Below, piece by piece: positions 23,292 to 45,124 of a DNA stretch of 64,000 bases. Within the stretch, counting starts at the first letter, position 1. Every line of letters begins with the position of its first letter. Location: IMG/VR virus record IMGVR_UViG_2926471356_000005, positions 1-64,000 of that record, one strand, 5' to 3'. The stretch is from a virus (taxonomy: Duplodnaviria > Caudoviricetes). The position numbers were made by a program, and so were the translations under genes. A model generated the notes under the pieces. The model was not told the origin of the DNA and made no database searches. It worked only from the letters and a program-made list of their open reading frames with translations.

Positions 23292-23312
23292 CAGAAAGAA
23301 GGTTATAAAGCT

Positions 23313-25423: not shown

Positions 25424-25512
25424 TGGTAGGGCAAATTCAATTTTTACAGTAAGTTTTTATAGATACGCGCGTACTAAGAAAACTTATAGTAAAATCTTAT
25501 TTTACCCTACCA
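25424..25512. repeat. 89-bp imperfect palindrome, copy B
   Basis: Immediately 3' of D5 helicase gene; inverted relative to copy A. Confidence 0.85.
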
Positions 25513-25518
25513 ACCCTA

Positions 25519-27425: not shown

Positions 27426-27625
27426 TGTGCCTTTCCTCCTTTTTTTTTCTTTTTCCTTTGCTCGATTTTTTCAACTCTGTGCGGAAGTCCGTTGTACATC
27501 TTCGCATATTCTCTTGCGTCAGACTTTTTCTCACAGAAACTACCCATACAGGGAATGTAGGGAAAACCTTCTGCGTGGCAGTACCACATACCTGTTGACT
27601 TTTCCTGCGATATGGTATAAGCCAT
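27410..27625 (-). CDS. hypothetical protein
   Basis: GGAGG RBS before MAYTISQ. Confidence 0.55.
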   Translation of the reverse strand: MAYTISQEKSTGMWYCHAEGFPYIPCMGSFCEKKSDAREYAKMYNGLPHRVEKIEQRKKKKKGGKAQWIIY

Positions 27626-27632
27626 TCTTAAA

Positions 27633-28424: not shown

Positions 28425-28431
28425 ACTCTCC

Positions 28432-29046: not shown

Positions 29047-29455
29047 AACTTACACCATCCCTTCTGCGGACTCTCATGTAGTTCTTATAGTCCAGGTTAT
29101 TCATCTTCGCTGCTCTATGCAAAGCCTGCTTCTTAGTTCCCAGTGTGCCGGGGATAGGCTCTTTACTGCCTACTTCATGCACATAATAACGGCTGCTGCC
29201 TTTCTGCTTTGATACGGTATATTTCAGAATCATCTTCTTCGCCTTTCTTTTCAGATTCTCTATAATGTAATCTGGTTCTAACTTGCATAAAACACTGAAC
29301 CAGTCAGAATAAAAGAACCGTTCCAGTTCTGTGATATTGCAGTTTTTTTTTGTCGGGGTAATAAACCCTGCTAATAAGCTGATATAATCATCTACAGCCT
29401 GTTTCACGATTGCGAATCTGAGATTTTCCAGTCCGATATCATTCAAATCTCCCAT
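29033..29455 (-). CDS. hypothetical phage protein
   Basis: AIVKQAVDDY...ERFFYSDWF pattern; coupled ORF. Confidence 0.55.
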   Translation of the reverse strand: MGDLNDIGLENLRFAIVKQAVDDYISLLAGFITPTKKNCNITELERFFYSDWFSVLCKLEPDYIIENLKRKAKKMILKYTVSKQKGSSRYYVHEVGSKEPIPGTLGTKKQALHRAAKMNNLDYKNYMRVRRRDGVSCDKD

Positions 29456-31581
29456 TACATCGACTTCCTTTCTGCAATCTCAGCCATCTTCGCAGCGTTC
29501 AGACGGGTATCACCGTGAACTCTGCTGTAGGACAGATAGCCGTTCATGCGGTCAATCTTCGTGAGGTTCTTGCTACCGCAGACCGGGCAAACATCCATCT
29601 CAAGTTCCTGATGTCCGCAGTCATCACAGTAAGCAAGGGAGAGATTCACACCCTCGTAGAAACCAAGTTGCATTGCTCTTCGAACCAGGGTCTTGACTGC
29701 TTTCCGATTGTAGGAAATAGGATAGCGAACGTACTGAATCTTGCCACCGTTGAACATATTCCAGAAACGTCCTTCAAGATTTTGCTTTTCAATAGGGGTT
29801 AAGTCCTCTGTTACATGACAATGGAAGGAATTACTCACATACGGGCGATCAGACACATTTTCTATAATGCCGTACTTCTTACGGAACTGCTCAATCTGCA
29901 AACCACACAAGCTTTCAGCCGGGGTTCCGTAGATTGCATACAGCCAACCGTCCTCATTCTTGAACTCCGTAACCTTCCGGTTGATATGCTGCATAACTTC
30001 CAGGGCAAACTCTCCGTCCTCTGCAATGGACTTGCCGTTGTAGAGCCGCTGCAACTCATTCAGTGCTGTGATACCGAAGGAAGCCGTCATGGGTTTCAGC
30101 AAGGGCTTGATTTTGTCAGACGGTTTGAGGTGTCCACCGTATACACCGCCCTCACAGTACATGATAGGATTGGTACTGGCTTTCATCTCACCTAGATATT
30201 CATAGGTACGCTTGTGAACCCCTCTAATCATTTCCAGGTAGTAGTCCAGGACTTCATAGAAGTCACGACTTTCGGCTCTGGCTTTTGCCAGAATCATAGG
30301 TAGGTGCAGAGAAACTGCACCGACATTGAAGCGTCCCACAAATACAGGCTTGTCATCTGCGTCCGCAGGCTTCATGCCGCCACGCTCAAACCACGGGGAG
30401 AGGAATGCACGGCAACCCATAGGGCTTATTACTCTACCGTACTTTTTGTACATCTCAGCCACATAGCCGTCACCTGTGAGGGATAGCCAGTCGGGATACA
30501 TGGTCTTGCTACTGCAATCAATACCTGCTTCAAACACATCCTCACTGAAACCGCCCTTACCGTGAAGATTTTCGTCATAGAGGAAAACCAGTTTCGGGAA
30601 CAGTACAGGTTTTTTGAATCCCGGCTTGCCCTCACCCTCCATGTGAACCTTGAAGAAAGTCTTACTTGCCATTTTGCCGAACACATCGGTAGCCAATCCG
30701 AAGGTCATAGTGATGAACGGATAATCGCCACGGGAAGAACCCACAGTGTTTAGCTTCATCTCAATACCCTGGAAGCCCTGTTCAAAATCGCGCTGCACTT
30801 TGCTCATAGCCCAGTCCTTTACGTCCTGGGAGAAGGTCTGTTGATTGCGGATTTCCATGTATTCAGCACAGTACTTCTTGTAGGACTTCTCTGCATATGG
30901 AGCCAGAATCTTGTCCACCTCTGGGACTGTGAAGCCACCGTACTGCTGTGACGCTGTAGCCAGGATAATATCTCCCAGAACGTCAAAAGCGGTATCAAGG
31001 GTTTTCGGCTCATTGTACCAGACATTGCCCATCTCAAAGCCGCCGCTCATAATAGAGGAAATGTCACACAGGCAGCAGTTCATAGTATCAAGGCGGGCTG
31101 ACTGGTCATGGATATAAATGTATCCGTCCTTGCAAGCCTGCAACTCATCATTGGTCATAAAGAACTTGCGGTACAGTCGCTTATTCAGTTCGTTGAAAAT
31201 CAGACATCTCTTCGTAGCAACTAAGGTGGAGTCCGTGTTTGCATTTTCCTTATCACCCAGAAAACGAATGGACTGAGATTTCTGATAGACCTCATCCATA
31301 ATGTGAACGAAATCTTTCTTGAAGTTTCGGTAATCCCTGTAAGATTTTGCAATCTTCGGGTTGACCTCATCAAGAACCTGCTCCACAATGTTGTGCATAT
31401 CCGCAACGTGAACCTGTTCCGGGAAACGCTCAGTAACAATAGCCATAACCTTAGATACAATTTCATGGTACTGTGTATCGTCCAATTCAATCATTGCACG
31501 GGCGGCAGACTTACTGACTGCATTGACGATCTTCTGACCGTCAAACTGCTCAATCGTACCGTCCTTCTTAATTACTTTCAT
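29455..31581 (-). CDS. nrdD: anaerobic ribonucleoside-triphosphate reductase
   Basis: ATP cone, NCCL, MGCR, TPAESL, CxxC...CPVCGS, RMNGY glycyl-radical loop. Confidence 0.95.
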   Translation of the reverse strand: MKVIKKDGTIEQFDGQKIVNAVSKSAARAMIELDDTQYHEIVSKVMAIVTERFPEQVHVADMHNIVEQVLDEVNPKIAKSYRDYRNFKKDFVHIMDEVYQKSQSIRFLGDKENANTDSTLVATKRCLIFNELNKRLYRKFFMTNDELQACKDGYIYIHDQSARLDTMNCCLCDISSIMSGGFEMGNVWYNEPKTLDTAFDVLGDIILATASQQYGGFTVPEVDKILAPYAEKSYKKYCAEYMEIRNQQTFSQDVKDWAMSKVQRDFEQGFQGIEMKLNTVGSSRGDYPFITMTFGLATDVFGKMASKTFFKVHMEGEGKPGFKKPVLFPKLVFLYDENLHGKGGFSEDVFEAGIDCSSKTMYPDWLSLTGDGYVAEMYKKYGRVISPMGCRAFLSPWFERGGMKPADADDKPVFVGRFNVGAVSLHLPMILAKARAESRDFYEVLDYYLEMIRGVHKRTYEYLGEMKASTNPIMYCEGGVYGGHLKPSDKIKPLLKPMTASFGITALNELQRLYNGKSIAEDGEFALEVMQHINRKVTEFKNEDGWLYAIYGTPAESLCGLQIEQFRKKYGIIENVSDRPYVSNSFHCHVTEDLTPIEKQNLEGRFWNMFNGGKIQYVRYPISYNRKAVKTLVRRAMQLGFYEGVNLSLAYCDDCGHQELEMDVCPVCGSKNLTKIDRMNGYLSYSRVHGDTRLNAAKMAEIAERKSM

Positions 31582-32077
31582 GGAGTATAACCCTCCCTTC
31601 CTTTAAGGACTTCGAAACATTGATAACTCTCTGGTTGGTAGAACCTGCCCAGTGATAACCCACGTCCTTTAATGCTTCTTCAAAACGTCCATCTACCAGA
31701 ACGTCAATGTAATTCAGAATCTCTCTGCCGTAAAAGTTCTCAGCCGTTACCTCTTCCCAGGTGTACCCTGTATAGAGCCAGATAGTTTTGTGCGGGAAGA
31801 ACTGTTTGATCTTTTTTACAAGCCATAAAATCTGACAACGATTGACGGGGTGCAGCGGGTCACCCCCAGAGAGGGTAAGACCGCTGATATAAGGCTTGCT
31901 CAATTCCGTGCAGATTTCGTGGAAAGCTGCTTTGTCAAACTCAACCCCGTCTGTGAAATCCCAGGTGATAGGGTTCTGACAGTTCTTACAGTGGTGTTCG
32001 CACCCTGCAACCCAGAGAACTACCCGTAACCCGTCACCGTTGTTCATATCATCGTGTGTGATATTGTGGAAGTTCAT
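31568..32077 (-). CDS. nrdG: anaerobic RNR activase
   Basis: GCEHHCKNCQNP, LSGGDP, DVLVDG, GSTNQR. Confidence 0.95.
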   Translation of the reverse strand: MNFHNITHDDMNNGDGLRVVLWVAGCEHHCKNCQNPITWDFTDGVEFDKAAFHEICTELSKPYISGLTLSGGDPLHPVNRCQILWLVKKIKQFFPHKTIWLYTGYTWEEVTAENFYGREILNYIDVLVDGRFEEALKDVGYHWAGSTNQRVINVSKSLKEGRVILHESN

Positions 32078-32412
32078 TAAATATCGCCTACCTTACGATG
32101 AAGAGAGTTCTCCACCGTAAAGCCCTCTGGGTAACGGACTTTCAGTTTGTCAATGTTCATCTGCATGACCGTATCAATGTCCGTACCCAGTGCGTCACAC
32201 GCTTCCGCAATCATCCAGAGACAATCTCCCAGTTCCTTTTCCATGTGTTCAAGGTTCACTTCATGCCCCTGGTACTTCTTCTGTAAGATACCTGCAACTT
32301 CTCCTGCTTCGCTGTTCAGACCGAACACTGCATGATACAGACGGTCAGCCTTACAATCGTATGGAATGCTGCAAGTTCTAATGGCTAATGCCTGGTATTC
32401 CTTGCCTGTCAT
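32077..32412 (-). CDS. MazG-like nucleotide pyrophosphohydrolase
   Basis: EAGEV...KELGDCLW...NIDKLKVRYP. Confidence 0.85.
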   Translation of the reverse strand: MTGKEYQALAIRTCSIPYDCKADRLYHAVFGLNSEAGEVAGILQKKYQGHEVNLEHMEKELGDCLWMIAEACDALGTDIDTVMQMNIDKLKVRYPEGFTVENSLHRKVGDI

Positions 32413-32428
32413 ATCAATCTACCTCTTT

Positions 32429-32560
32429 CTATTCTTCCTTACTTTTAGGGGTATCGCTCATTGAGTCATGTGCTGCAAGAATTGCTATCGCCGCAAGCAG
32501 TACTGCACCACCAATGACTCCAATGATGAAAGCCAGAATTGCAATCAATACTGTTACCAT
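32429..32560 (-). CDS. small membrane protein (43 aa, not in ORF track)
   Basis: MVTVLIAILAFIIGVIGGAVLLAAIAILAA...; AAGGAGG RBS. Confidence 0.55.
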   Translation of the reverse strand: MVTVLIAILAFIIGVIGGAVLLAAIAILAAHDSMSDTPKSKEE

Positions 32561-32574
32561 GACTGGAATCCTCC

Positions 32575-32766
32575 TTAGAACTCATCGAAATGTTTCTTGA
32601 TACTCTTGTGGGTCTTATGAATTACCACCAACTGTGCCACTACGATAACAACGTAGAGAACACCTGCCAGAATCTCCGGGAGCAGGCATACCCACCATGC
32701 CCAGGTGATAACTCCCAGTAACTTTAAGACGATGAAAATAATCGTCAGAATCTCAGTAAATCCCAT
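32575..32766 (-). CDS. small membrane protein
   Basis: LTIIFIVLKLLGVITWAWWVCLLP. Confidence 0.65.
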   Translation of the reverse strand: MGFTEILTIIFIVLKLLGVITWAWWVCLLPEILAGVLYVVIVVAQLVVIHKTHKSIKKHFDEF

Positions 32767-33772
32767 TATTTTGTCCTCTCTTTCTCTTCGTTCTTCCGTT
32801 TCTGAACGTATTCTCTGAACATTCTGGTATATTCGTAACTGTCTTTGAATACATGAGAAACGGCTTTGAGCATTTTAGGTTCATGCTCTTCGATTATGCT
32901 CAATTCATCCAGTAATTTTCGATTGAACGGACAACCTACACACCCCGTTCGGGTCATACCGTACTTTGTATAGCAATCGCTGTGCTGAATGCCGAAAAGT
33001 TCATCATAGTAAACTTCGTCTTTATCGCTATACCAAAATAACGGTCTGTACTGGTCGCATTCATCTTCTCTTGCTGTAAAGCAGGTTTTGTAGCTTGCAG
33101 ACCTTATACCTTTTTCAGCTTTTCTGACTCCAATAATCATAAGGTCTATGTAGTTGTCCTTTATAAATTGAGCAGAAACTTCTTTCTTAGCATAAGTGCA
33201 GCACTTACTTGAAATTTTGAACCACGGGGGATTCTCAATCATAAATTCTTTCAGATACTTATGATAGTTAATGTTGAACATTGAGGTTTTGAAACCCGGT
33301 TTGTTTCTGCCATTACACCACCAATTTATTGCTCCCTGTGCTTTTGGGTATTCAGCCAATAGCTGCTCTACGGGTTTATCCTCCCATGTGAAGCCATGGC
33401 GTTGTAGCCGGGAAATCATATCTGATACAAACTTTGATAAGAAAGGTTGCCCGTATTCACTACACGAAAGAGGGATAGGCTTGATTGCTTTGATTCTTTC
33501 GATTTCAATATGATATTTCTCTTCAAGGTATTTCAGATGGTCTTTGGTTGCCTGGTACTCTAACCCAGTGTCGAACCAGATATATCTAACCTTTCGGTCT
33601 TTATCAATCTTTGAAATCAAATCAAGCATTATATCACTATCCTTCCCCCCCCCGATATAGAGCAAGCTATGCTGTCATAACGGGAAAGAACGGAATGTGC
33701 TTTTGCTACAGAATCAAAGATTGCAAAATTGCCATCTGCCTTTTCTAAAAGTTTCTGTACTTCCAAGTCCAC
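32766..33772 (-). pseudogene. PAPS-reductase-family (PP-loop) protein frameshifted at a G9 tract
   Basis: Upstream frame ...IACSISG, downstream GKDS..DTGLE..CC..GVRKAE..RTGCVGCP; +2 offset at 33645-33653. Confidence 0.75.
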
Positions 33773-33788
33773 GCCGTTTTCTTCCTCC

Positions 33789-34337
33789 TTAAATTTTGAA
33801 AATTCGTGCCGCCATCATGTCAGCGGTATGAGTCCACAGGACGTTCGGGTATTTCTCAATGGACTTTCCGTACTTATCCCAATTCTCTTTGTCATCAAAG
33901 GCTCCCATGTGCCAACGGATACAAGCCATTTCCTCATCTGTGAGATCAACAATCTTCTGTGCCAGAATCACGGACTTGTCACCGTGTCCTGGCAAAAGAA
34001 TGTTGGGGTTGTAGCTGTATGTTCCATCCGGGTTGTGAATGTACGAATCACACTTACAGAGGTCATGGAGCATACCCACAATGTAGGGGCTTGCCTTGCG
34101 CTTCCAGTTCAGCCCCATTCGCTTTGTCAGAGAAAGCAGAGAAGAGGTTACTGTAAAGCTATGGTCAAACAGCCCGCCCTCATAGTTCCCGTGGTACTTC
34201 GTAGAAGCAGGAGCCGTAAAGAACCCCGCAGCCATCAACTGATTTTTCAGAAAGAAAACATCCGTACTGGACATTCCACCGCTCATCAGCTTCTCAAAAG
34301 CCTTGACACGCTTATCTCGTTCACTCATATTCTTCAA
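33789..34337 (-). CDS. HD-domain phosphohydrolase
   Basis: APASTKYHG..GGLFDHS, LHDLCK, WHMG, TAD. Confidence 0.85.
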   Translation of the reverse strand: MKNMSERDKRVKAFEKLMSGGMSSTDVFFLKNQLMAAGFFTAPASTKYHGNYEGGLFDHSFTVTSSLLSLTKRMGLNWKRKASPYIVGMLHDLCKCDSYIHNPDGTYSYNPNILLPGHGDKSVILAQKIVDLTDEEMACIRWHMGAFDDKENWDKYGKSIEKYPNVLWTHTADMMAARIFKI

Positions 34338-34415
34338 TCCTTTCGTTTAACTTTATTAAATATAAACCATTGGAGAGTTCAAAGCTACACTTCTCCCTCT
34401 CCGCAGGTCATTTGA

Positions 34416-34913
34416 TTAACCCAGAATCCTATCCAGGTCGAACTTCTTACCGCTTGCCTTTTCAGCAGGTGCAGCAGCCGGGGCAGTAGCCGCAGGCTTG
34501 CTTTCCTTCTTCGATGCAGGGGCTTCCGCTTCGTCAAAACCATCCGCAGGCTCCTTATCGCCCAGACGAACGAACTTGAGCATTTTACCCGGAGTCTTGT
34601 TAGACTCAACCTCTTCGTGGTCTACCTCACAGCGGATATAGTGACCGACAAGTTCCTCATGGTCAATTTCCGTCAGAGTGTAGTCATTCAATGCAGTCTT
34701 TGCGAAGTAACTGAAAGCGTTCAGACCTCCCTGGTTCGGCTCACCGTCTGCATTCAGCAGAGAGAAGCGTTCTGTGTGCTTCTGACCCGAAACAAGCTGC
34801 ATAACAATCTCCATCTTGCCGAAGTCCTCTTTGTACTTGACCTCAACAATCTTAAAAACGTGGGTTCCCTTCGGAATAAGCGTGAACCCCTCACTCAGTC
34901 CAATCTTTGCCAT
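34416..34913 (-). CDS. putative ssDNA-binding protein (DUF669-like)
   Basis: FTLIPKGTHVFKIVEV; in recombination module. Confidence 0.55.
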   Translation of the reverse strand: MAKIGLSEGFTLIPKGTHVFKIVEVKYKEDFGKMEIVMQLVSGQKHTERFSLLNADGEPNQGGLNAFSYFAKTALNDYTLTEIDHEELVGHYIRCEVDHEEVESNKTPGKMLKFVRLGDKEPADGFDEAEAPASKKESKPAATAPAAAPAEKASGKKFDLDRILG

Positions 34914-34927
34914 TTTAAGTATCCTCC

Positions 34928-35170
34928 TTATAAGGTGTTTAATATATCCAGAGATTTCTTCTTGAGAGAATCAATACTCTGAGTACCAGGTGTATAAATC
35001 TGCTTGAACAGGTGTTCCAGAACTGTAACCACGATGGAGTTTCCTGCCATCTTGTAAATCTGTGTTTTGGAGATACCATTCATTGCAAGCAGTTCATAGG
35101 GAATACCCAGATTATCCAGTGCTTTCTCAAACGCTCCAATTCCGCTAAAAAGACTGAGGTATCTTATCAT
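34928..35170 (-). pseudogene. C5 cytosine methyltransferase with in-frame internal deletion
   Basis: Motif I (LSLFSGIGA) fused to motif X (QIYKMAGNSI); no PC catalytic motif. Confidence 0.8.
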
Positions 35171-36219
35171 GCGGACTCCTTTCTGGCTTTCGGAGTAAAG
35201 CGGTACTGCGGTTCGGGTGTGCCATGATACTTCTCAATATCAATGCCGTCCTCCTGCATTTTCACCATATCGTAGCCAGGGTCTTTCATGGTCTTAGAGG
35301 TAACCCAGTCGAAGGAAGCACCGCTGATAGTAACGGTCTTATCGCCCTCCTTGAACTGGCTGATAGCTTCCTTCTTGAGTATATCGGTAATCGTCTTATA
35401 CCTCTTCTCATCGTCAGCTACAGTACCCTTGACCTCATCAATGTGTTTCTTCAACTGCTCTGCTTCGGCAACCAGAGCAGCAATGTCAGTGTCCGGGGAC
35501 AGGTTGTTATCACGCAGGACTTTCAGAATGTCTGCGTCCGCTTTCTCATCGAACTTCGGAGAAACACCGCTCTCAACATGAGTTTTCCACCACTTCTCAA
35601 CCTTCTTGACGGTCTTTTTCAGTTCGGGATAACGCTCAGACAGCTTGAAAGGACGAACGATGGTGTTTTCAGTGCTACACTGATATGCGTCCGGGTTCTC
35701 ATAGTCCTTGTCACCCAGGAAGCTACACACCATAATCACGTCATCTACACCCAGAAGGTACGCATAGAGCGCAGCCTGCAAAGCGTAGTACTCCGGAATA
35801 TCCTCAACCCAATCCTCAGACCTCTTCGTGGTTTTCATCTCAAGAACCGTAGTAGGCTTGCCGTCCTTGTCAACCAGAAGATAGTCCCACATACCACCGA
35901 AGATAGGACTCTCTTTGAAGAAGTCACCCCAGGTTTTCTGGAAGTAGTCAGCCCCGTACACATCCGTAGGTGTGATGAGGTTGGTCATGAAATAAGACTT
36001 CTTCATAAACTCAGCCTGCTTCGGCTCAATCGTCTTACCTGCAACGGTATAGATTGTGTCCTCAAACGGCTCTTCGTAGGTTCTGGTGATTGCACACCAG
36101 GCATTGAACGGGGTTGTCCACTTGTTCAGCCCCATAATCGCCGCAAAGCGTGTACCCGTAATTTTCTTAGGACGCTTCGGCGGGGTGATAGTAATGGTCT
36201 TATCATCATTCCACTTCAT
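35167..36219 (-). CDS. YqaJ-like exonuclease
   Basis: ITGTRFAAIMGLNKW, WDY...EMKT, YYALQ. Confidence 0.85.
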   Translation of the reverse strand: MKWNDDKTITITPPKRPKKITGTRFAAIMGLNKWTTPFNAWCAITRTYEEPFEDTIYTVAGKTIEPKQAEFMKKSYFMTNLITPTDVYGADYFQKTWGDFFKESPIFGGMWDYLLVDKDGKPTTVLEMKTTKRSEDWVEDIPEYYALQAALYAYLLGVDDVIMVCSFLGDKDYENPDAYQCSTENTIVRPFKLSERYPELKKTVKKVEKWWKTHVESGVSPKFDEKADADILKVLRDNNLSPDTDIAALVAEAEQLKKHIDEVKGTVADDEKRYKTITDILKKEAISQFKEGDKTVTISGASFDWVTSKTMKDPGYDMVKMQEDGIDIEKYHGTPEPQYRFTPKARKESA

Positions 36220-36784
36220 TTTTCTTACCTCCTATGAACAGAAATCGTGTATCCACTTTCACGGACAACGCCGTGGTCACAGGGTTTTCATCGGCTTTTA
36301 CCAGGTCACTCAAGTCAAACCCAAGGCTCTTGAGATATTCCATTGCCAGTTTTGCATTCTTCATATTGCTTACATTGGCAATCACATTCCTGTAGTTATC
36401 GGTAATACCCTTAATCATTTCATTCTTTCGGGCTTTGATACCCTTTCTGATTTCCGTTCTTCCGTCCTCAAACTCTTTAAGCAAACAGGAACGGATTTCA
36501 GCTTGAGAACTCATATTTGCCAGTTTATAAGAGATAGAACCGTAGTAACCACAGAGGGTATCAACCCCCGGATATTCCGCTTTCACCTTCTCTTTGAAGG
36601 ATTCAGTCAGACTGTAAGCCTGCTGCATAAGAGCAGCAATACTGGTTGCCGTATCTTCCAGACCGATTCTCCCATTTCTCTCTGCATAGTAAGTGTTGAG
36701 AGCCTTTTCACTCTGGGTTTCTACTTCGGCTAATGCCTTTTCGCTCTGCGACTCCAACCACTTAATGATTTGTCGTTTTGTCAT
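36206..36784 (-). CDS. hypothetical protein
   Basis: Coupled ORF with GGAGG RBS. Confidence 0.6.
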   Translation of the reverse strand: MTKRQIIKWLESQSEKALAEVETQSEKALNTYYAERNGRIGLEDTATSIAALMQQAYSLTESFKEKVKAEYPGVDTLCGYYGSISYKLANMSSQAEIRSCLLKEFEDGRTEIRKGIKARKNEMIKGITDNYRNVIANVSNMKNAKLAMEYLKSLGFDLSDLVKADENPVTTALSVKVDTRFLFIGGKKNEVE

Positions 36785-37001
36785 TCTTTGCTTCCTCCAA
36801 CTCAACGGCTTTGTTCAGATACCAGATTGCTTTCTGCAAATCTTCCATACCGTTTTTCTTCTTGTGCCTATACACGTACTTGAGAGCGTTGCACACGCAA
36901 AAGTTCTGCGTGGCTTCTACTCCCTGGGTTTCCACCATAACGTCAATGCACTCAAACTTCCCGGTTTCGTAATGAGCGGGATGGTTTACATTGTCAGCCA
37001 T
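36762..37001 (-). CDS. DUF3310 protein
   Basis: DNVNHPAHY..ECID..NALKYVYR..K..EDLQKAIWYL. Confidence 0.85.
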   Translation of the reverse strand: MADNVNHPAHYETGKFECIDVMVETQGVEATQNFCVCNALKYVYRHKKKNGMEDLQKAIWYLNKAVELEEAKNDKTTNH

Positions 37002-37014
37002 GACTCAGCCCTCC

Positions 37015-37764
37015 TTACTCACCGTAGGCGGCAATCATCTCACCAAGGTTCTGAATAAGCTGCTCACACGCTGCACGGGTGACATGGGTGAAGCCATTGG
37101 TTTTCATGGCAATCTGCTGAACAAACTCTTCCTGGTCGGAATCCTTGTCCATCAGAGTCTTGCAGGCTTCTTTGAGTGCCTTAATCTGCAACTCATCAGC
37201 CTGTCCATCAGTACCCGTCATTTCCTTCTTAGCTTCCTCACGCTCCTTCGGAGTAGCAGGTGCAGCAGACTTCTTTTTCTTCTCCTTCTTAGCCGTTTCC
37301 GGGTTCGGAGCAGGAATCTCTTCTTCCTCTACCTGGTCATCAGAACCAAGGTTTGCGTCAATGTCATCGGGTTCAGTAATATCCAGAACTGCCATCCAGA
37401 GGTAACGGCGCAGGTAGGTAATGGAAGAGCCAAGAGCTTGCATAGGGTTGGTGACTTCCTTGCCCTGGTTACTGATAATGGGCTTGACCTCACGATAGGG
37501 AACGGTGAAGGTCATCGGGGCTTCCTCAATGTTGTCAGCGTTGAACACGCTCATAACAGCCTTGTCATCGGTGAACTCAATATTGGTGGTCAGACCGACA
37601 CGGGCGAAGATACGGATTGCCGGGGGAACAATATCCTCTAACTCAAAATACTTGAACTCAAGGTGCATATTCTTACCCGACTTCTGTACCTTCTGGTTCA
37701 GAAAGTACAGTCTTGCTTTCGCCAACTTCTGGCGCACGTTCATTGCTTCATAAATATTAGCCAT
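37015..37764 (-). CDS. ERF-family ssDNA annealing protein
   Basis: KSGKN..KYFELEDI; QALGSSITYLRRY. Confidence 0.85.
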   Translation of the reverse strand: MANIYEAMNVRQKLAKARLYFLNQKVQKSGKNMHLEFKYFELEDIVPPAIRIFARVGLTTNIEFTDDKAVMSVFNADNIEEAPMTFTVPYREVKPIISNQGKEVTNPMQALGSSITYLRRYLWMAVLDITEPDDIDANLGSDDQVEEEEIPAPNPETAKKEKKKKSAAPATPKEREEAKKEMTGTDGQADELQIKALKEACKTLMDKDSDQEEFVQQIAMKTNGFTHVTRAACEQLIQNLGEMIAAYGE

Positions 37765-37778
37765 TGCTAATGTCCTCC

Positions 37779-39752
37779 TTAATCGAATAATGCTAAAGAT
37801 TTCTTTTTCAAGGAATTGATTCTCCTTGTATTCCTCCGAGGCGGTTTCACACCCAGGAACTCACGGATATTCTTCTGTGCCAGTTTCAGATACCAGTTAC
37901 GGTCTACCACATCAATAGACAACTCATTATTGTTGTCTACCATGCAGTGAACTGGCAGACTGGGAACTTTTGCAGCCTTGCCTGTTACAGCGTGGGTCTT
38001 GTAGATAGTTCCATACCGTCTGTCTGCCGTTGCATAGACCCGGTTGACCTTTTGGACAGGAACCTGTTCATCACCTACCATCTGATAGCACCCGGAATAC
38101 TTACCTCCAACCTTTGCGATAATCTGAAAGTCCAGGATATTCTTACTTGCCATTATCGTTTCTTCTGGGTCTACACCCTTTACAAAGTAATCCTGTATGG
38201 CTTTTGCCACTATCACAGCGTTGTTGTTGATATTCCATGCGCCACCACTCATGTTCTCCCAGGCAGGGAGTCCCATTTTGGTAAAGTCAATGTTTGCATT
38301 GGTCAGAATACCTCTCACCAGTGCGCCACCCTTGACCTTCGGCTTACCGTCACCCACAGGAACCTCAACGTAGTTGTTTACATCTCTCTGCACAATTTTC
38401 TGAATGAAATCCTCTTCCAGTTCAAACCCGGTTCTGTCCTGCCATTCCTGGGTAATTTCCTGCCATTTTGCTTCATCGGAGTTGTCGAAACTTACCATGA
38501 TACCATCCGTGTTAAGCTGAATGATTTTCAAAGTCGGACACTCACTGACCAAGTGCATTGACAGTTCCAGTAGGAGAAGCTGTCCTGTGATACAAACTGA
38601 ACGTCCCATCAGAGGGTCATACAGGTCATTGAAAGCCACGCCATCTTTACCGTTAAGCATGGTTCCGTAGGTGGTGTTCAGTACCAGTTTCAGAGCGTTT
38701 GCTGTGACCTTATCCCCGGCTTTCTTCGCCTGTACTCTCTCTTCCAAGGTATCTACATACACCTGCGGGGACGGGATATTGCGACTACAGAAGCCGTATT
38801 TCTGTCCCTTTGAGAGAGGAATGGTCATCAAGTGCGGGTAATAACTTGCCACGTCCTTGTTTCGGATTGACCTACCCTCAGTAGCTTCTTCCACATAAGT
38901 AGGAATTGCACCGTGGATACCTCCGTAGGCTATCGTACATTTGCACTCACCAATGGAAAAATCCAGGGCGGCTCCCTTGTGCTTTACACCCTGTTCATCG
39001 TAGCCACCAAACAGAAGGTAGTTCGGAATGTTCGGGTCATGCAGCTTGTCAAAGAAGTCAAATACTTCCTGCGGAATATACTGCCGAAGCAGCTTATCTG
39101 GATACTGATAATCTCTTTCGTCTGTCCATGGCTTCTCTGGTTTCTGGGCTTGCAGGTACACGCTTGTCAGTTTGGCATTGGTCATATACATAGCCTGCCT
39201 GTCTGTCAAACCACGCTTCCTGCCTACAGCCACTTTGTTATCCAGATAACCTTGCCGCAACTTGAAAAGAATCTCTGTTGCGTCCACATCGTACTTACAG
39301 TAGTAAGTAGTCTGTGCCTTTTCTGATTCAGAGAGAACATGGTCAACATTGAAATCAACCTCTGTTTCCTCAATCGGGATACCCAGGTGGGCTTCAATCC
39401 CTTTAAGGGATACCCCGTCCTGGCAATCATCCTTGAGGTCGAAACTGTCAAAATAGACCCGGTACTCTCTCAGAGCGGGAATGTCCCACCCGTTTAATTC
39501 GTGAACAATGATGAGGTCATTTATCTCCTTCACCTGTTCCGGGGTGAACCCACACATAACTGCCTTGAGTATGTGGTTATCGTAGTGCTTGTTATTGAAG
39601 CCACCCAGATACGGGTTACGCTCCATGAAAGCCAGAACTTCATCATTGTCATTCCAGATAACCGTGTACTCTCCCGTGGCTACTTCTTTGAACACAAACA
39701 GCCAGTCATGGGCAAATACCTCACAGTCGAATATGTAGGTTCCCTCAACCAT
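37779..39752 (-). CDS. family B DNA polymerase
   Basis: Exo FDCE, FNNKHYD, YCKYDV; DVASYYP; KLVLNTTYG; NTDG. Confidence 0.85.
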   Translation of the reverse strand: MVEGTYIFDCEVFAHDWLFVFKEVATGEYTVIWNDNDEVLAFMERNPYLGGFNNKHYDNHILKAVMCGFTPEQVKEINDLIIVHELNGWDIPALREYRVYFDSFDLKDDCQDGVSLKGIEAHLGIPIEETEVDFNVDHVLSESEKAQTTYYCKYDVDATEILFKLRQGYLDNKVAVGRKRGLTDRQAMYMTNAKLTSVYLQAQKPEKPWTDERDYQYPDKLLRQYIPQEVFDFFDKLHDPNIPNYLLFGGYDEQGVKHKGAALDFSIGECKCTIAYGGIHGAIPTYVEEATEGRSIRNKDVASYYPHLMTIPLSKGQKYGFCSRNIPSPQVYVDTLEERVQAKKAGDKVTANALKLVLNTTYGTMLNGKDGVAFNDLYDPLMGRSVCITGQLLLLELSMHLVSECPTLKIIQLNTDGIMVSFDNSDEAKWQEITQEWQDRTGFELEEDFIQKIVQRDVNNYVEVPVGDGKPKVKGGALVRGILTNANIDFTKMGLPAWENMSGGAWNINNNAVIVAKAIQDYFVKGVDPEETIMASKNILDFQIIAKVGGKYSGCYQMVGDEQVPVQKVNRVYATADRRYGTIYKTHAVTGKAAKVPSLPVHCMVDNNNELSIDVVDRNWYLKLAQKNIREFLGVKPPRRNTRRINSLKKKSLALFD

Positions 39753-39957
39753 CGTTATACCGCCCTTCTTCCAGAGCCTTTTGTACCTGCAAGAGTTCTT
39801 GCCTTGCCTGTACGCAACGGCGAATTATTGACGCTTTGGAGTGTTCGGGAGGAATTACGCCCCACTTGCCGGGTTCGACTCCCATACTCTCTTCTACGCC
39901 TGCCAGAAGAATTTGAGCCGTAGTGAAGTGGTTCTTCACATTCTTCGTCATCTTCAT
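39745..39957 (-). CDS. hypothetical protein (70 aa) overlapping upstream gene
   Basis: GGAGG 9 nt before ATG 39957; ends at polymerase start. Confidence 0.45.
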   Translation of the reverse strand: MKMTKNVKNHFTTAQILLAGVEESMGVEPGKWGVIPPEHSKASIIRRCVQARQELLQVQKALEEGRYNDG

Positions 39958-40141
39958 CTTCGTAGTCCTCCAAGTCATACCACCAGTTATTTGCCCAGGA
40001 GAACAGTGCCAGGTATGCCATACACAGAACATTGATGAAGAGCATTGTCATCCCGTAGACTTCATCATCCAGAGCGCAGGCAGTGAACAGCCACGTTATG
40101 CCTACGATATATCCGACTGTTTTCAGAACTTTATTCTTCAT
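39755..40141 (-). CDS. membrane protein
   Basis: Two hydrophobic segments then acidic stretch. Confidence 0.55.
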   Translation of the reverse strand: MKNKVLKTVGYIVGITWLFTACALDDEVYGMTMLFINVLCMAYLALFSWANNWWYDLEDYEDEDDEECEEPLHYGSNSSGRRRREYGSRTRQVGRNSSRTLQSVNNSPLRTGKARTLAGTKGSGRRAV

Positions 40142-40142
40142 G

Positions 40143-41528
40143 TCAATCTCCTATAAATTCGCACCCGCACTTCCTGTAACTGGTACATCGTTGTTTGAAA
40201 GATTTTTGCAATGACCGTATGCAGTCCACATAGTCATAAGCTATTGGCTGCTCCTTACCGTCAAAGGTTCGGGCAATACGTCCTACACTCTGAACTATTA
40301 CTGCGTAGTCTTTCTGGGGGGTTGTTAAGTACAATCTGTCCAGTCTGGGAATGTCCAGACCTTCTTTTGCCAGGGAATATGTTGCAAACAGATACCGTTT
40401 CTTGCCAATCCTCATATCCTCAATAGCCTGTTCCCGTTCAGCTTTCCGCTTCTTACTGGTCATCTTTCCATCTATCACCGCTGCCTGCGCCCTTAACTTC
40501 AAAGGTAACTGCTCATATAGGTATTTGAGATGGTCAACTCTTTCTGATAGAATCAGATTGAAATGCTCACGGTTCTCAATTAAGTCATCAAGAATAATCT
40601 TGTTTCGGCTCTCACATTCTGTGAGGTAGGTAATCATTTTGCAGTAGTTAATTGTGCCGTCACTGTTCAGATAAGCAGGACTCAGTTTCACGTCCGTACC
40701 TTTCGGCAGAACACTTACTGTCATAACCCTGGACTTCACTGCTTCATCTGGAACAGTCCATACTACTTGACCTAACATTGCGTAGGTTGCTTTTATCATG
40801 CCGTCCGAACGATGGACGGTTGCTGACAGCCCGAACTTATGTCTGGCACACAGCGTATTCAGCACCTTTGAGAACTGGGTTACCGCTGTAGGTGTACCGC
40901 TTACTCTGTGACACTCATCCACAATCACGCAGTCCCACTCATCTCTATATTGGTCTAAGTCCAATTTGCACATGGTCTGGATTGTGGCGAAGGTCATAGC
41001 CTCGCCGATATTGACCTTTCCTTCGGTTATCGTTCCCAGTAGTTTCGAATCAACGTACTGTTCTGCACGGCTCTTGCTCTGCGTCAGCAGGTCTTTGGTA
41101 TGTGTCAGCCAGAGGGTTTTTACCCCTAACGCACACGCCAGGGCAATTCCCATCTGAGTCTTACCAGACCCGGCAGGGGATTGTAGAATGCCGTAGTGGT
41201 TTATCAGCATTGCCGCAACTGCTTCTTCCTGGTAGTCATACAGCGGAACCTTACCGCCGTAGTCAACCTTCTTCGGCTCTTTGAACAGCTTCTTCACATC
41301 TCCTTCCAGAAGCGGCAGAATTGCTCTCAGACACCCGAATGGGAGAATCAAGCTATTACCGTTCACCTCATAGAGATAAAGCGTTCGTGGGGTATTCCCA
41401 AGCCACAGGTGCATTCGTGCTTTTTGCTGATACTCTGGGTTTGTCATTTCCAGATTCTCTTTGCACCACTTAATCAGTTCGGGTGAGGGGTCAAGGATTT
41501 TCAATCGGCTCCCGATTTCTATAAACAT
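40143..41528 (-). CDS. SF2 DEAD/DEAH helicase
   Basis: SPAGSGKT, DECH, SAT, QSVGRIAR. Confidence 0.9.
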   Translation of the reverse strand: MFIEIGSRLKILDPSPELIKWCKENLEMTNPEYQQKARMHLWLGNTPRTLYLYEVNGNSLILPFGCLRAILPLLEGDVKKLFKEPKKVDYGGKVPLYDYQEEAVAAMLINHYGILQSPAGSGKTQMGIALACALGVKTLWLTHTKDLLTQSKSRAEQYVDSKLLGTITEGKVNIGEAMTFATIQTMCKLDLDQYRDEWDCVIVDECHRVSGTPTAVTQFSKVLNTLCARHKFGLSATVHRSDGMIKATYAMLGQVVWTVPDEAVKSRVMTVSVLPKGTDVKLSPAYLNSDGTINYCKMITYLTECESRNKIILDDLIENREHFNLILSERVDHLKYLYEQLPLKLRAQAAVIDGKMTSKKRKAEREQAIEDMRIGKKRYLFATYSLAKEGLDIPRLDRLYLTTPQKDYAVIVQSVGRIARTFDGKEQPIAYDYVDCIRSLQKSFKQRCTSYRKCGCEFIGD

Positions 41529-41931
41529 CCATTTCCTCCAACCACTCTTGAAAGGTCTTGTACTCTGGAAACTCTGACTCTGTAATGCTACCCTGTCCGT
41601 AAAGCTGCCGCAGACATAACTCATCGAAGTGAATCATATAAATCTGTCCGTCATTCAGCTTCATAGCAAAGTAACAATGCTCATTGCCCTGGGCTTCCCA
41701 CATGGTCATAGCCGCTTCCTGGTTCGGCTCAATCCGGGATAACGGAAAGCGGTTGTTAGAACATACCTTGCAGTCAATCAAGACTGCTATGTTATCCCGA
41801 ACCGCAAGCACGTCTGCGGGTTGTCCTACCTGGTTTTGTGCCAGATTGTGCGCCCAGAAACCTTGCTCTGCCAGAAGTTCACACAGTTCCTCTTCAAAGT
41901 GGTTTCCCATTGTTTTGTTCACTTGCTTCAT
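41491..41931 (-). CDS. PD-(D/E)xK nuclease, Holliday-junction-resolvase-like
   Basis: GNHFEEE..QPADVL..IDCK. Confidence 0.7.
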   Translation of the reverse strand: MKQVNKTMGNHFEEELCELLAEQGFWAHNLAQNQVGQPADVLAVRDNIAVLIDCKVCSNNRFPLSRIEPNQEAAMTMWEAQGNEHCYFAMKLNDGQIYMIHFDELCLRQLYGQGSITESEFPEYKTFQEWLEEMDVYRNREPIENP

Positions 41932-41947
41932 AGGCTTCTGCTCCCAT

Positions 41948-41969
41948 TGCACCTCACAAGGAGGTGCAG
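41948..41969 (-). promoter_or_regulatory. hairpin downstream of VR2
   Basis: TGCACCTC-acaag-GAGGTGCA; same loop as VR1 hairpin with a compensatory pair. Confidence 0.75.
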
Positions 41970-41970
41970 A

Positions 41971-42543
41971 TTAACGATTCTTGATTTTGAAAGCGGGGCG
42001 AACGCCAAAAGAGTACGAAGCGCCGTCGTTGTCCGCATAACCGCTGCCGTTGACAAAGGAGAAGTAAGTAGCGGATTCTCTGACCTTGTTCATCAGCCAG
42101 TACCACTGTAAGTTCTCATACTTGCTGCCATCGAACGCCATACGGTTTCTGCGCTTCTTCATAGGCTCCCACTGCTTCACATACGGGCTTTCGTACTCAC
42201 CATAGTAGTTCTCTCCGAAAATCTCTTTCTCAGTCGGCAGACGGAGCAGATCACCGTTGTCAAACGGAGCCATCATAGCCTTGAGTTCTGCCGGGAAGAG
42301 ATTCAGAATCTCACCATTCAGCTTCTTATGCAGGTCACTCTCTTCGTAACCTCCTTCGTTGGTACGGGTGCTGTTCATTGGGCACTCACCAGGCAGGCAA
42401 TCAACCAGGCAGAAAATCATGCCGTCCTCTTCCTGCTGCATAGCCATAGCCTGCGCCTTCACACCGTCCGTGAGTTTGACCTCGATAATATCTCCAACCT
42501 TAAAAGTATCAACGTCAGACTTAATCATTCTTTTTACTTTCAT
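41971..42543 (-). CDS. DGR target 2: stand-alone DUF6273/CLec-like protein in early operon
   Basis: FKVGDII..LRLPTEKEIFG..WYWL..SATYFSFVNGSGYADNDGASYSFGVRPAF; ATGA-coupled start at 42543. Confidence 0.8.
   Translation of the reverse strand: MKVKRMIKSDVDTFKVGDIIEVKLTDGVKAQAMAMQQEEDGMIFCLVDCLPGECPMNSTRTNEGGYEESDLHKKLNGEILNLFPAELKAMMAPFDNGDLLRLPTEKEIFGENYYGEYESPYVKQWEPMKKRRNRMAFDGSKYENLQWYWLMNKVRESATYFSFVNGSGYADNDGASYSFGVRPAFKIKNR
41989..42075 (-). repeat. DGR variable region VR2
   Basis: 75/87 identical to VR1. Confidence 0.85.
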
Positions 42544-42689
42544 TGTGTTTTCCTCCACTTGTACGGCTTACCGTATTTTTCTTGATACCAGATTTCAAAC
42601 TTCTTGCGGTTTTCCTCATCTTTGAAGTATTCCTTTACCCTGTCAGCAAGGACAGAACAAAGTGCGCTTCCTTCTAATGTGCGAAGCAT
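42540..42689 (-). CDS. small hypothetical protein (49 aa, not in ORF track)
   Basis: MLRTLEGSALCSVLADRVKEYFKDEENRKKFEIWYQEKYGKPYKWRKTQ, coupled at both ends. Confidence 0.6.
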   Translation of the reverse strand: MLRTLEGSALCSVLADRVKEYFKDEENRKKFEIWYQEKYGKPYKWRKTQ

Positions 42690-42913
42690 TAAGCCCCATC
42701 AACGAGGACGGAACCATTTTCATACTTGTCCAGAATATCTATGGACAATTCAATGATTGCGTCCGCTTTAGTACCGTTTCTGGTTCCCGAAATTACTGAA
42801 CTCATCTCTGTCTTATCAGTCACAATACCCCGCAAGGCAAGCTGACCAATCAACCAGACGTAAGACAGCTTGTGCTTTTTAAGCCGCTCACGAATGTTTT
42901 CACGTTCCTCCAC
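42689..42913 (-). CDS. Cro-like regulator
   Basis: Divergent from repressor; AAAGGAGG before GTG; HTH-like. Confidence 0.65.
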   Translation of the reverse strand: MEERENIRERLKKHKLSYVWLIGQLALRGIVTDKTEMSSVISGTRNGTKADAIIELSIDILDKYENGSVLVDGA

Positions 42914-42956
42914 GTTTTCGCTTCCTCCTTTCATATTAGAATCTTGTAAACTAAAG

Positions 42957-43117
42957 TTGACAACAGAATCTCCAAAGGTTATAATGAAGCTACCACACCC
43001 ATATACCATTGAAAACTCTGCGGGGTAAAATTTACAGCCCGGAGGGGCTATTTCTTATACCCTGTAAACAACTTTTGTTGACATATTCAATATAGTAGAG
43101 ATTTCCCAAATTGTCAA
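42957..43117. promoter_or_regulatory. face-to-face lysogenic/lytic promoters
   Basis: + TTGACA(42957)-17-TATAAT(42980); - TTGACA(43117)-17-TATATT(43094). Confidence 0.75.
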
Positions 43118-43162
43118 CAGGTATTTTAGAGTTTTCCCAAATTTATTTTTAGGAGGGTTCTT

Positions 43163-43510
43163 ATGGATACCTTAGAACGCATTTTGGAGTTACAAAAACA
43201 GTCGGGATTAACAGTAAAAGCCCTTGAAGCTGCTACAGGTATATCTAATGGCAGTTTTAGCAAATGGAAAAAGGGAACATATGCGCCCAGTGCCGAAGCT
43301 GTACTAAGACTGGCTAAATATTTTCACGTTTCTACTGACTATCTATTCTGTTTATCCGATTCACCTTATCCGAAAGTAGAGATTTCCCTAACCGAAGAAG
43401 AGCAATTACTGCTTGACGCATTTCGTTCCGCTTCCACGCAAGGCAGATTCAATATTATTACCACCTGTATGTGCGAGAAGCGAAAAGGGGGCAACGAAAG
43501 TGCCGGGTAA
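43163..43510 (+). CDS. CI-like XRE repressor
   Basis: LTVKALEAATGISNGSFSKWKKG..LAKYFHVSTDYL. Confidence 0.85.
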   Translation: MDTLERILELQKQSGLTVKALEAATGISNGSFSKWKKGTYAPSAEAVLRLAKYFHVSTDYLFCLSDSPYPKVEISLTEEEQLLLDAFRSASTQGRFNIITTCMCEKRKGGNESAG

Positions 43511-43537
43511 TTGATTTTATAGAATGGAGGAAGAACC

Positions 43538-45124
43538 ATGTATGAGGATATAAAAACAGCCTGCCTATACGTTAGATTCTCAAGCCATAATCAGACTGAG
43601 CAATCTATTGAAGGGCAGACCCGTGTTTGCCGTGATTTCTGCAAGCGGCATAATATTAGAATTGTAGAGATATATGCTGACAGAGCCACGTCTGCCAGTA
43701 AAGACATTGAGAAGAGAGTCCAGTTCCTCAAGATGATAAAATACTCTGAGAAGGGCTTGTTTGACGCTGTAATCGTATACAAACTTGACCGCTTCGCCCG
43801 TTCCCGGTATGACTCAGCCACCTACAAATATCGCTTGAAGCGTAACGGGGTACAGCTTATTTCAGCCACAGAAAATATCAGCAATGACCCAGAAGGTATC
43901 ATTCTGGAATCAGTGCTTGAAGGTATGGCTGAGTTCTACAGTGCCGAACTCTCCCAGAAAATTAACCGTGGTATGAGAGAGTCAGCCTATAAGCATAACT
44001 CTATAGGAGGGGCAGTCCCTCTGGGATACAAGATTGAAGATAAAAAACTGGTGATAGACCCTAAAACGGCTCCCCTTGTGAAAGAAGCCTTTGAGAAATA
44101 TGCGGGCGGAGAAACGGTTGCTGAAATCTGCCGTCAATTTAATGCCCGTGGGTACAAGACCTCAAAGGGTACAGCTTTCGGAAAGAGTTCTTTCACCAAA
44201 ATATTTCGTAATGAGAGATACATCGGAGTCTACACCTTCCATGACTACCGAGCAGAGAACGCCATACCTGCTATTATCGACAAAGAACTCTGGGATAGGG
44301 TGCAACTTAGAGTCGGTAAGATTAAAAATGCACCTGCCCGGAACAAAGCAAAAGTGGTCTACTTACTTAGTGGTAAAATCTTCTGCGGACATTGTGGTAG
44401 TAAAATGAACGGAAATTGCAATGCGGGAAATTACTATTACTATCAGTGTTACGGAAAGAAGAACGGCAATGTTGATTGCAATAAAAAGAATATCCGTAAG
44501 GAGTTCATAGAAAGACTGGTTGCCCAAGACGCACTATCGCTCCTTACAGATGAATATATAGAACAGATTGCTTCTATTGCCTGTGAAAAGAATCAAAATG
44601 AGATTGAACTGGATTCAGCCCTTCCAACTATTCGTGACCGTATCCACCAGGTAGACGTATCCCTCAACAACCTTCTGAAAGCTATTGAGTCGGGATCAGC
44701 CCCAGATATGCTTGTAAAGCGTATGGGTGAATTAGAGAAAGAAAAGAAAGACCTGCAAGCACAGGCTAAGAAAGAATCTGAGGATATTGTTGAACTGGAC
44801 AAAGCCCAGGTTATTTATTGGTTAGAACAGTTTCGGGGCGGCAGTATTGAAGATGAAGAGTTTTGCCGTATGCTCATTGACCTTTTCGTAAACTCCGTCA
44901 CTGTATGGGATGAAGATGACGATACCTATAAGGTCACAGTGGCTTATAATCTAACCTCTTTACCGACAAAAACGTACCGCCTAAATAAAGACGGCACGTT
45001 GTCGGATTTCGCTTCCAATGCACCAGCTTTGAGGGCAGGAATGAATATATCTCCCGACTTTGCAGCTTCCCGCTGCTTATCCTTGACGATTTTGGAATGG
45101 AACGGGGAACGGAATACGGCTTAG
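43538..45124 (+). CDS. large serine integrase, reading through the att junction
   Basis: YVRFSS, DRFAR, FCGHCG/YQC zinc ribbon; last 32 aa encoded by flanking DNA. Confidence 0.92.
   Translation: MYEDIKTACLYVRFSSHNQTEQSIEGQTRVCRDFCKRHNIRIVEIYADRATSASKDIEKRVQFLKMIKYSEKGLFDAVIVYKLDRFARSRYDSATYKYRLKRNGVQLISATENISNDPEGIILESVLEGMAEFYSAELSQKINRGMRESAYKHNSIGGAVPLGYKIEDKKLVIDPKTAPLVKEAFEKYAGGETVAEICRQFNARGYKTSKGTAFGKSSFTKIFRNERYIGVYTFHDYRAENAIPAIIDKELWDRVQLRVGKIKNAPARNKAKVVYLLSGKIFCGHCGSKMNGNCNAGNYYYYQCYGKKNGNVDCNKKNIRKEFIERLVAQDALSLLTDEYIEQIASIACEKNQNEIELDSALPTIRDRIHQVDVSLNNLLKAIESGSAPDMLVKRMGELEKEKKDLQAQAKKESEDIVELDKAQVIYWLEQFRGGSIEDEEFCRMLIDLFVNSVTVWDEDDDTYKVTVAYNLTSLPTKTYRLNKDGTLSDFASNAPALRAGMNISPDFAASRCLSLTILEWNGERNTA

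Follow-up and report, generated by a model that had tools for sequence, protein, structure and literature searches.

The targets of phage diversity-generating retroelements (DGRs) are usually read as receptor-binding tail proteins. In BPP-1 (Mtd, Avd, the template repeat (TR) and the reverse transcriptase (RT) bRT), the single target is adjacent to the cassette and forms a tail-fibre-tip trimer with anchoring domains. A layout with two targets is published for the Roseburia phage Shimadzu (LR596903.1), for which the accessible text of Cornuault et al. (bioRxiv 10.1101/575076) describes one variable repeat (VR1) in a tail gene that precedes the RT and a second one (VR2) in orf43 "of unknown function", with about 2% of the reads over both VRs carrying 10-15 DGR-type mismatches. 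The stretch studied here, hereafter called the window, comprises positions 1 to 64,000 (64,000 nt) of the IMG/VR virus record IMGVR_UViG_2926471356_000005 (Duplodnaviria; Caudoviricetes). It contains a decayed member of such a system, in which a stand-alone 190-aa gene at 41971..42543 (minus strand) is very probably a genuine second target of the lineage's DGR and would encode a variable binder that is produced from the early transcript.

Similar small targets are described for the Faecalibacterium phages Lelie and CP11, in which one TR serves a "large" and a "small" DUF6273 target with C-terminal VRs, as here, and whose function is called unclear in the accessible text (PMC11792537). For Toutatisvirus, the accessible part of the iLund4u preprint (bioRxiv 10.1101/2024.10.15.618418) reports that the second target is core while the DGR is accessory, that targets persist where the DGR is absent, and suggests receptor binding. 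Since tblastn at E 1e-3 returned no Faecalibacterium phages, the Lelie, CP11 and Toutatisvirus targets are more distant members of the family. The tgt2 proteins of the gut phages nd4 and nd12 are likewise single-domain DUF6273 C-type lectins with a C-terminal VR and second targets of one DGR, but differ in their length (234-294 aa) and flanking helices, the likeness being drawn here from their description; in the accessible text of Baykov et al. (PMC10743442) tgt2 is proposed to act like Mtd. According to the accessible portion of Roux et al. (PMC8144416), remote targets lie beyond the detection of their large DGR survey. The two-target layout is therefore not new, and this window, taken alone, is an ordinary, decayed copy of a published arrangement. 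New are the location of the small gene in the early/replication module of several unrelated phages, and DGR-less lineages that retain the gene and have lost hairpin and variability. The accessible literature on Shimadzu, Lelie/CP11, Toutatisvirus and tgt2 contains no discussion of an early-operon position of the small target.

The two target genes of the window and their repeats are situated as follows:

41971..42543, minus strand: 190-aa stand-alone DUF6273 gene of predicted C-type-lectin fold, very probably the second DGR target (open reading frame (ORF); Pfam; phrog_21980; structure model)
41989..42075, minus strand: VR2, 87-nt variable repeat (75/87 to VR1; compared with the TR of relative G001)
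41989-42006, minus strand: GC-rich block GGCGTTCGCCCCGCTTTC at the 3' end of VR2, resembling an initiation of mutagenic homing (IMH) element
5009..5872, minus strand: 287-aa first target gene (VR1 protein), last of the tail module (ORF; DUF6273 C-terminus; phrog_27494)
5021..5107, minus strand: VR1 (75/87 to VR2; compared with the TR of G001)

A blastn comparison of the window with itself reproduced the match between VR2 and VR1 that had been noted in a first-pass annotation of this DNA (75 of 87 nt, 86.2%, E 5.5e-17), and the same list of 12 differences was recovered, of which 11 lie at positions 1-2 of NNC/NNT codons and the remaining one is tct/tcg. No third copy of the repeat was found in the window by this comparison; the 3'-terminal 25-mer is the same in VR1 and VR2, unique otherwise, and without a match across 100 shuffles. 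The annotation's statement that no comparable DNA match exists elsewhere holds for the rest of the two genes, but it overlooked a second short match of 23/25 between 41948-41972 and 4979-5003, which corresponds to a GC-rich hairpin after both stop codons. Beyond repeat and hairpin, no DNA similarity between the two target genes is detectable, and at the protein level residues 238-286 of the VR1 protein and 137-187 of the 190-aa protein are the sole aligning part. The closest intact TR, that of G001, has the same non-adenine letters as both window repeats, save for one synonymous tct-to-tcg change in VR2: according to the mismatch strings over the 87-nt repeat, VR1 differs from it at 16 adenines and nowhere else, and VR2 at 15 adenines in addition to the synonymous change.

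Relatives with an intact DGR allow the two repeats to be compared with their own template. A blastn search (distant mode) with both regions gave no match in the phage collection; homologues came from tblastn, and 45 loci were obtained when viral contigs were scanned with the small protein. Contig L014 presents the excised arrangement with complete gene order: VR1 gene, accessory ORF, TR, 400-aa RT, 100-aa ORF, holin and endolysin, then (on the other strand) integrase and repressor, after which come the cro-like ORF, the 49-aa ORF and, carrying VR2, the small gene. This gene order recurs in L054, and the cassettes of G001 and G003 were located by a whole-record search. In all four the 400-aa RT is intact and matches PF00078. 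The best solved match of the relatives' RT is the entry set 8ub7-8ube, labelled "Reverse transcriptase", which we take to be bRT. Eight TR-VR comparisons from these four relatives (79 nt each, TR positions 14-92) gave the following numbers of differences at TR adenines (A) and at other bases (non-A):

L014: VR1, 11 A and 1 non-A; VR2, 13 A and 0 non-A
G003: VR1, 17 A and 0 non-A; VR2, 15 A and 0 non-A
G001: VR1, 14 A and 0 non-A; VR2, 17 A and 0 non-A
L054: VR1, 17 A and 0 non-A; VR2, 7 A and 1 non-A

Altogether 113 differences were counted, 111 at TR adenines and 2 at other bases (VR2: 52 and 1; VR1: 59 and 1); 8 of the 111 represent a fixed A-to-C change between the 3' ends of VR and TR. In all four relatives the VRs end in ...GGCGTTCGCCCCGCTTTC and the TRs in ...GGCGTTCGCCCCGATTTC, a difference consistent with an IMH/IMH* pair. 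The relatives' TRs match both repeats, and the adenine-specific mutagenesis of both genes from one TR, as earlier proposed, is thereby borne out. BPP-1 likewise shows adenine-specific transfer, VR and TR that differ in their GC-rich 3' block, a hairpin after the VR and a variable protein of lectin fold. In the mechanism envisaged, the single TR would be copied into cDNA with its adenines misread, and this cDNA would replace the last 87 nt of either the VR1 or the VR2 gene; homing would be guided by the GC-rich 3' block that the repeats have in common and by the hairpins that follow them, and the outcome would be 12 Asn-templated codons randomised on the surface of a C-type-lectin fold.

The variability of the small protein follows the same pattern. 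By word-indexed search, 2131 homologues were retrieved; at 90% identity, one cluster (P0002) comprises 7495 distinct sequences which, judging by their C-terminal type, appear to stem from DGR-bearing phages. In an alignment of 39 homologues with 85-92% identity to the query, mean column entropy amounts to 0.16 bits for residues 1-157 and to 1.61 bits for residues 158-180. The 12 columns with at least 1.5 bits (160, 163, 165-167, 169, 171-174, 177 and 179) are the 12 Asn codons of the TR, the translation of which is SATNFSNVNNNGNANNNNASNSNGVRPDF. A second cluster with the same C-terminal type exhibits the same hypervariability. Invariance of VR2 across relatives, which the first-pass annotation had listed as evidence against its own proposal, was looked for, and VR2 proved hypervariable instead. 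Its other refuting outcome, differences in intact relatives that do not follow the TR adenines, was likewise not borne out. In a mouse-gut metagenome (run X1), the phage forms one contig of 44,288 nt, both ends of which lie inside VR1 (L014 3073-3134) and which is continuous across VR2; this suggests heterogeneity within the sample at VR1, and none or less at VR2. The read data covered comprised three contig runs, one of them RNA, and a raw-read run from which 4 reads aligned.

A different picture is found where the DGR is absent. The DGR census covered 30 viral records from the 45 loci, short contigs and the weakest matches being left out. With the L014 RT or PF00078 as query, an RT is absent in 28 of the 30 records and present in two; among records at least 90% complete, it occurs in 1 of 26. 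A DNA search of the 30 records with the TR as query found TR and VR1 only in the two RT-bearing ones. Within the DGR-less group with a KLKNH tail, L022-L025, L028 and L029 share one VR, and a few others show single changes. In a cluster of 528 members (P0049) the repeat is invariant in 14/14 members read, and two exact sequences of this cluster occur on 95 and 65 contigs. The reading frame of the small gene is intact in almost all homologues inspected, with the exceptions of L055 (broken) and three fragments. Several DGR-less records contain the small gene more than once in the early region, the copies being no more than a few kb apart (three in L034, L036 and L039; two in L020, L029, L035, L042 and L046). 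A family-wide search (E 1e-10) of 200 other genomes, one per genus, found the small protein in five.

Concerning the hairpins, the window contains one behind each repeat:

41948..41968, minus strand: GC-rich hairpin after VR2, 8-bp stem, 5-nt loop (-8.5 kcal/mol, z -4.1; DNA fold)
4978..5000, minus strand: hairpin after VR1, 9-bp stem, 5-nt loop (-11.7 kcal/mol, z -5.9; DNA fold)

A compensatory change from C-G to T-A distinguishes the VR1 and VR2 hairpins. The VR2 hairpin is situated 19 nt past the repeat, the position of the cis element used in DGR homing; in BPP-1, a hairpin downstream of the VR is reportedly required. A GC-rich hairpin is present at VR2 in the window and in all three DGR-bearing relatives examined (L014, L016, L018), whereas all eight DGR-less loci of the KLKNH type examined (L020, L022, L026, L034, L035, L038, L041, L043) are without it and possess in its place, directly after the stop codon, a different and weaker AT-rich stretch with TTGAC. 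The GC-rich 3' block is retained in all eight, in L041 with three point changes. In DGR-less lineages, the loss of the homing signal goes with the loss of variability. The VR2 hairpin of the window reads GCAAT against GCAGT in the intact relatives, a difference of one base that shortens the stem from 9 to 8 pairs and possibly represents decay after loss of the DGR.

The cassette of the window itself is dead. Its remains lie next to the VR1 gene:

4431..4959, minus strand: accessory-protein gene at the avd position, its ORF continuing to 4411 over the deletion junction (96% identity to the L014 ORF between VR1 and TR)
4428..4430, strand not applicable: deletion junction, about 980 bp gone, equivalent to L014 3746-4725 (blastn of the window against L014)
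4058..4427, minus strand: RT remnant, C-terminal part only (99% identity to residues 291-400 of the 400-aa RT of L014; weak TIGR04416 match)

Lost with the deletion are the entire TR and residues 1 to about 277 of the RT, among them the YMDD motif (269-272 in L014), so that a DGR-type RT with a catalytic YxDD is not present in the window, just its last approximately 110 residues. The accessory ORF of the window is 182 aa long. No TR was found in the window or in the whole genome. Because the 980-bp deletion took away the TR and the catalytic core of the RT, both repeats are frozen; the window is a decayed DGR member, and VR1 and VR2 are frozen records of past diversification. A diversification in trans by another DGR of the genome was ruled out, the sole RT of the genome being of the group II intron type (contig C38; L009). 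C38 is a contig of 1.66 kb with an HNH-like ORF behind this RT, and the element is probably multi-copy and broke the assembly. A weak third match to the repeat on contig C23, considered as a candidate TR, belongs instead to a paralogous small gene.

The 190-aa protein had been described as a stand-alone lectin-like protein with no obvious anchor, and this description agrees with the structure prediction. It matches DUF6273 (PF19789) with 38 bits at a gathering threshold of 23.5, and phrog_21980 over residues 1-186 (E 2.3e-26). The predicted fold (pLDDT 95.7, pTM 0.90; 64 diverse homologues) consists of one domain, residues 10-190, and no further one; its N-terminus lacks hydrophobic character, and no leader is recognised in the sequence. 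The best structural match of the model is the Thomasclavelia ramosa IgA peptidase's N-terminal domain (Z 16.3, root-mean-square deviation 2.1, 162 residues), a DUF6273 domain named as such in PMC12402451. Further matches are the DGR variable protein TvpA (Z 8.9) and the C-terminal domain of Legionella Lcl (Z 8.7); weaker matches are Mtd (Z 5.7) and a large number of C-type lectin domains (Z 6-7). The model thus identifies the protein as a predicted variable protein of C-type-lectin fold with its VR at the C-terminus. The C-terminus of the VR1 protein reaches 23.3 bits for DUF6273, just below the cut-off of 23.5, and its N-terminus matches phrog_27494, "virion structural protein" (E 1.4e-6); its model from a 3-sequence alignment has a pLDDT of 36.3, the N-terminal domain being characterised by the PHROG match only.

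The small gene lies in the early region opposite the repressor, within an integrated prophage:

1637..45037, strand not applicable: prophage with an attachment-site (att) core of about 15 nt at both ends and attP between lysis genes and integrase (synteny break against the excised-form contig L014)
43163..43510, plus strand: helix-turn-helix (HTH) repressor, cI-like, divergent from the early operon (Pfam HTH_19/HTH_3, phrog_8)
43089..43117, minus strand: promoter-like TTGACA-17-TATATT facing the early operon (consensus match only)
42689..43009, minus strand: cro-like first ORF of the early operon (role assigned from its position opposite the repressor)
42540..42689, minus strand: second ORF, 49 aa, its stop overlapping the start of the target gene (ATGA)

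The small target is the third ORF of this operon after the cro-like and the 49-aa ORF, with overlapping stop and start codons, and the order 42689..43009, 42540..42689, 41971..42543 agrees with the place earlier assigned to it. The cro-like ORF has no family match in Pfam or PHROG, and its true start is probably the ATG at 42934, its annotation with 106 aa notwithstanding. No terminator-like site was found on the minus strand down to 41400. A perfect TTGACA-17-TATAAT is situated at 42957-42985 on the plus strand, inside the 5' part of the cro-like ORF and directed at the repressor gene.

The distance of 37 kb between cassette and target, to which attention had been drawn, is real in the integrated prophage, where it arises because attP lies between cassette and target; it does not apply to the excised genome. 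Synteny with L014 ends at window positions 1637 and 45037 with an overlap of 15 nt, attP lying between the endolysin and integrase genes, and via attP the cassette remnant of the window is about 5.8 kb from VR2. In L014, where both lie on one strand, 6.6 kb separate the end of the TR (3831) from the start of VR2 (10470) downstream of it. The serine integrase gene (43538-45124) has the att core (about 15 nt) at its 3' end, and for this reason the C-terminal tail of the integrase differs between the integrated form (528 aa) and the excised one (533 aa in L014). The same location of the att core at the 3' end of the integrase gene is given for Shimadzu in a figure legend of the accessible text (bioRxiv 10.1101/575076).

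Among named phages, Shimadzu possesses the same order as found here (VR1 tail gene, Avd, TR, RT, lysis, integrase, repressor, early genes with the small target), and its orf43 is a homologue with 32.5% identity over 96% of the query (tblastn). The 3' end of orf43 agrees with its TR at 96/111 positions, 15/15 mismatches falling on adenines, and a hairpin follows the stop codon. There are differences, however: the small gene of Shimadzu is situated deeper in the early region, in the interval between DNA methyltransferase and Erf recombinase and about 13.8 kb from the TR, and its DGR is active, whereas that of the window is deleted. The closest named homologue (44.5% identity) is found in the Acutalibacter phage Fontainebleau (ON453893.1; L064, L073), in the interval between DNA polymerase I and helicase. 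There the cassette is intact, with the TR upstream of the annotated RT; the small gene agrees with this TR at 73/88 positions with 15/15 mismatches at adenines, and a VR1 with hairpin terminates a tail-module gene, such that the two-target DGR is complete. In the main text of the Fontainebleau paper (PMC10197239), as far as accessible, the terms "DGR", "diversity-generating" and "reverse transcriptase" do not occur. Of the further records read, which also included G204 and G224, three show recognisable surroundings of the small gene:

G223: second ORF opposite the repressor, adjoining a tyrosine integrase
G203: directly ahead of a transcriptional regulator; the large terminase gene follows about 1.9 kb beyond
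G179: after a ParA-like and another ORF (read from their N-termini)

Early or replication genes surround the small gene in the window as well as in L014, Shimadzu, Fontainebleau, G223 and G203. Full-length homology, a single domain, a TR-templated VR and the early position place the 190-aa protein with Shimadzu orf43 in an early-module group, a grouping that is our own and not a curated one.

The genome of the window (G000) contains two more paralogues with about 53% identity in other prophage-like regions, C19:29410-29979 and C23:22975-23541 (L070, L071, L003). Both are situated near contig ends and, as read by size and order only, upstream of terminase genes; each carries a VR-like tail of its own and also possesses a short hairpin and a GC-rich 3' block of different sequence; the next ORF after both paralogues is the same Cys-rich one (72-76 aa). 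A DGR for the C19 or the C23 paralogue is not present. A HicA/HicB-like pair, recognised by size and sequence pattern only, is located at L003 634-1257 beside the C23 paralogue on the opposite strand.

Several points weigh against the reading of the 190-aa gene as the second DGR target and as the source of an early, non-virion binder. The window contains neither a TR nor an active RT, for which reason the diversification of its own copy is deduced from relatives, and the accessory protein is not recognised as Avd in Pfam, NCBIfam or PDB sequence searches. VR2 may vary less than VR1 in some populations. Early timing is suggested by gene order and a consensus promoter match, and the number of promoter-like sites found (3) equals that expected from shuffles (3.0); one metatranscriptome covers the whole phage evenly, which makes it uninformative on timing, and may hold DNA. 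To our knowledge, all characterised DGR lectin-fold targets are surface-exposed binders. A receptor-binding role is also assumed for small targets in the accessible texts of bioRxiv 10.1101/2024.10.15.618418 and PMC10743442.

The explanation of the 87-nt match as ordinary paralogy or gene conversion of two DUF6273 genes, with no retroelement acting on the early gene, could draw on the same domain family being present in both genes and on a window that offers no TR for a direct test; yet the similarity is limited to repeat and hairpin, VR2 differs from the TR of the four relatives at adenines in 52 cases against 1, variation affects the Asn-templated codons only, and VR2 mutagenesis in the homologous Shimadzu gene is experimental according to the accessible text (bioRxiv 10.1101/575076), such that we regard this explanation as hardly credible. 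VR2 might also be an unselected by-stander, i.e., a domain duplicate with homing signals that is struck by the DGR without benefit to the phage. The many lineages in which the gene is retained, its repeat frozen and a DGR absent (28/30 records without RT; 14/14 invariant) would fit such a view, which is nevertheless very unlikely given that the scaffold is strongly conserved with its frame intact in almost all homologues inspected, that the two-target design recurs in phages just 32-44% identical, and that the gene persists without a DGR, at times in two to three copies. The analysis documents a DGR of two targets and its decay, together with the fold of the small protein and the early-operon position of its gene.

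The small protein appears to be a variable binder, expressed from the early transcript and lacking leader and anchor. Mtd and TvpA act as surface binders, and the small protein has its TR and the DUF6273 lectin fold in common with the tail-end protein; both facts would suit a virion-associated or extracellular accessory that binds receptors or glycans and is encoded away from the structural genes. Receptor binding is also what the Toutatisvirus and tentaclin papers propose in their accessible parts. Such a role is doubtful, however: no anchoring domain or leader is present in the one domain of residues 10-190, overlapping stop and start codons couple the small gene to early ORFs, and the gene occurs in early, replication or partition contexts across phages with differently annotated structural modules and presumably differing virion types. 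Gene position would favour a non-virion role, and we tentatively consider it close to an even chance that the small protein acts inside the infected cell or at lysis; we rate this as likelier than a part of the virion, and something else altogether accounts for the rest. A wider proposal, which at present we hold to be unlikely, is that small DUF6273 proteins like orf43 are conserved cytoplasmic, early and hypervariable binders, in effect a DGR-diversified "antibody" against variable host factors such as defence proteins. If this were true, selection would take place at the next infection, in which a variant genome expresses its own variant binder, and lineages that lose DGR and hairpin would keep one or several fixed specificities.

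Several unrelated temperate phages of gut Clostridia encode, amid early and replication genes, a lectin-fold target that lacks leader and anchor. Such a target is a poor fit to the receptor-binding reading, and it may mean that the proteins diversified by phages include one active within the cell or during lysis. The relatives furthermore constitute a natural control: where cassette and hairpin are present, the 12 templated codons are scrambled, whereas with neither of them these codons are fixed across many assemblies. This contrast between scrambled and fixed codons provides a clean system for asking what the ligand of the small protein is.

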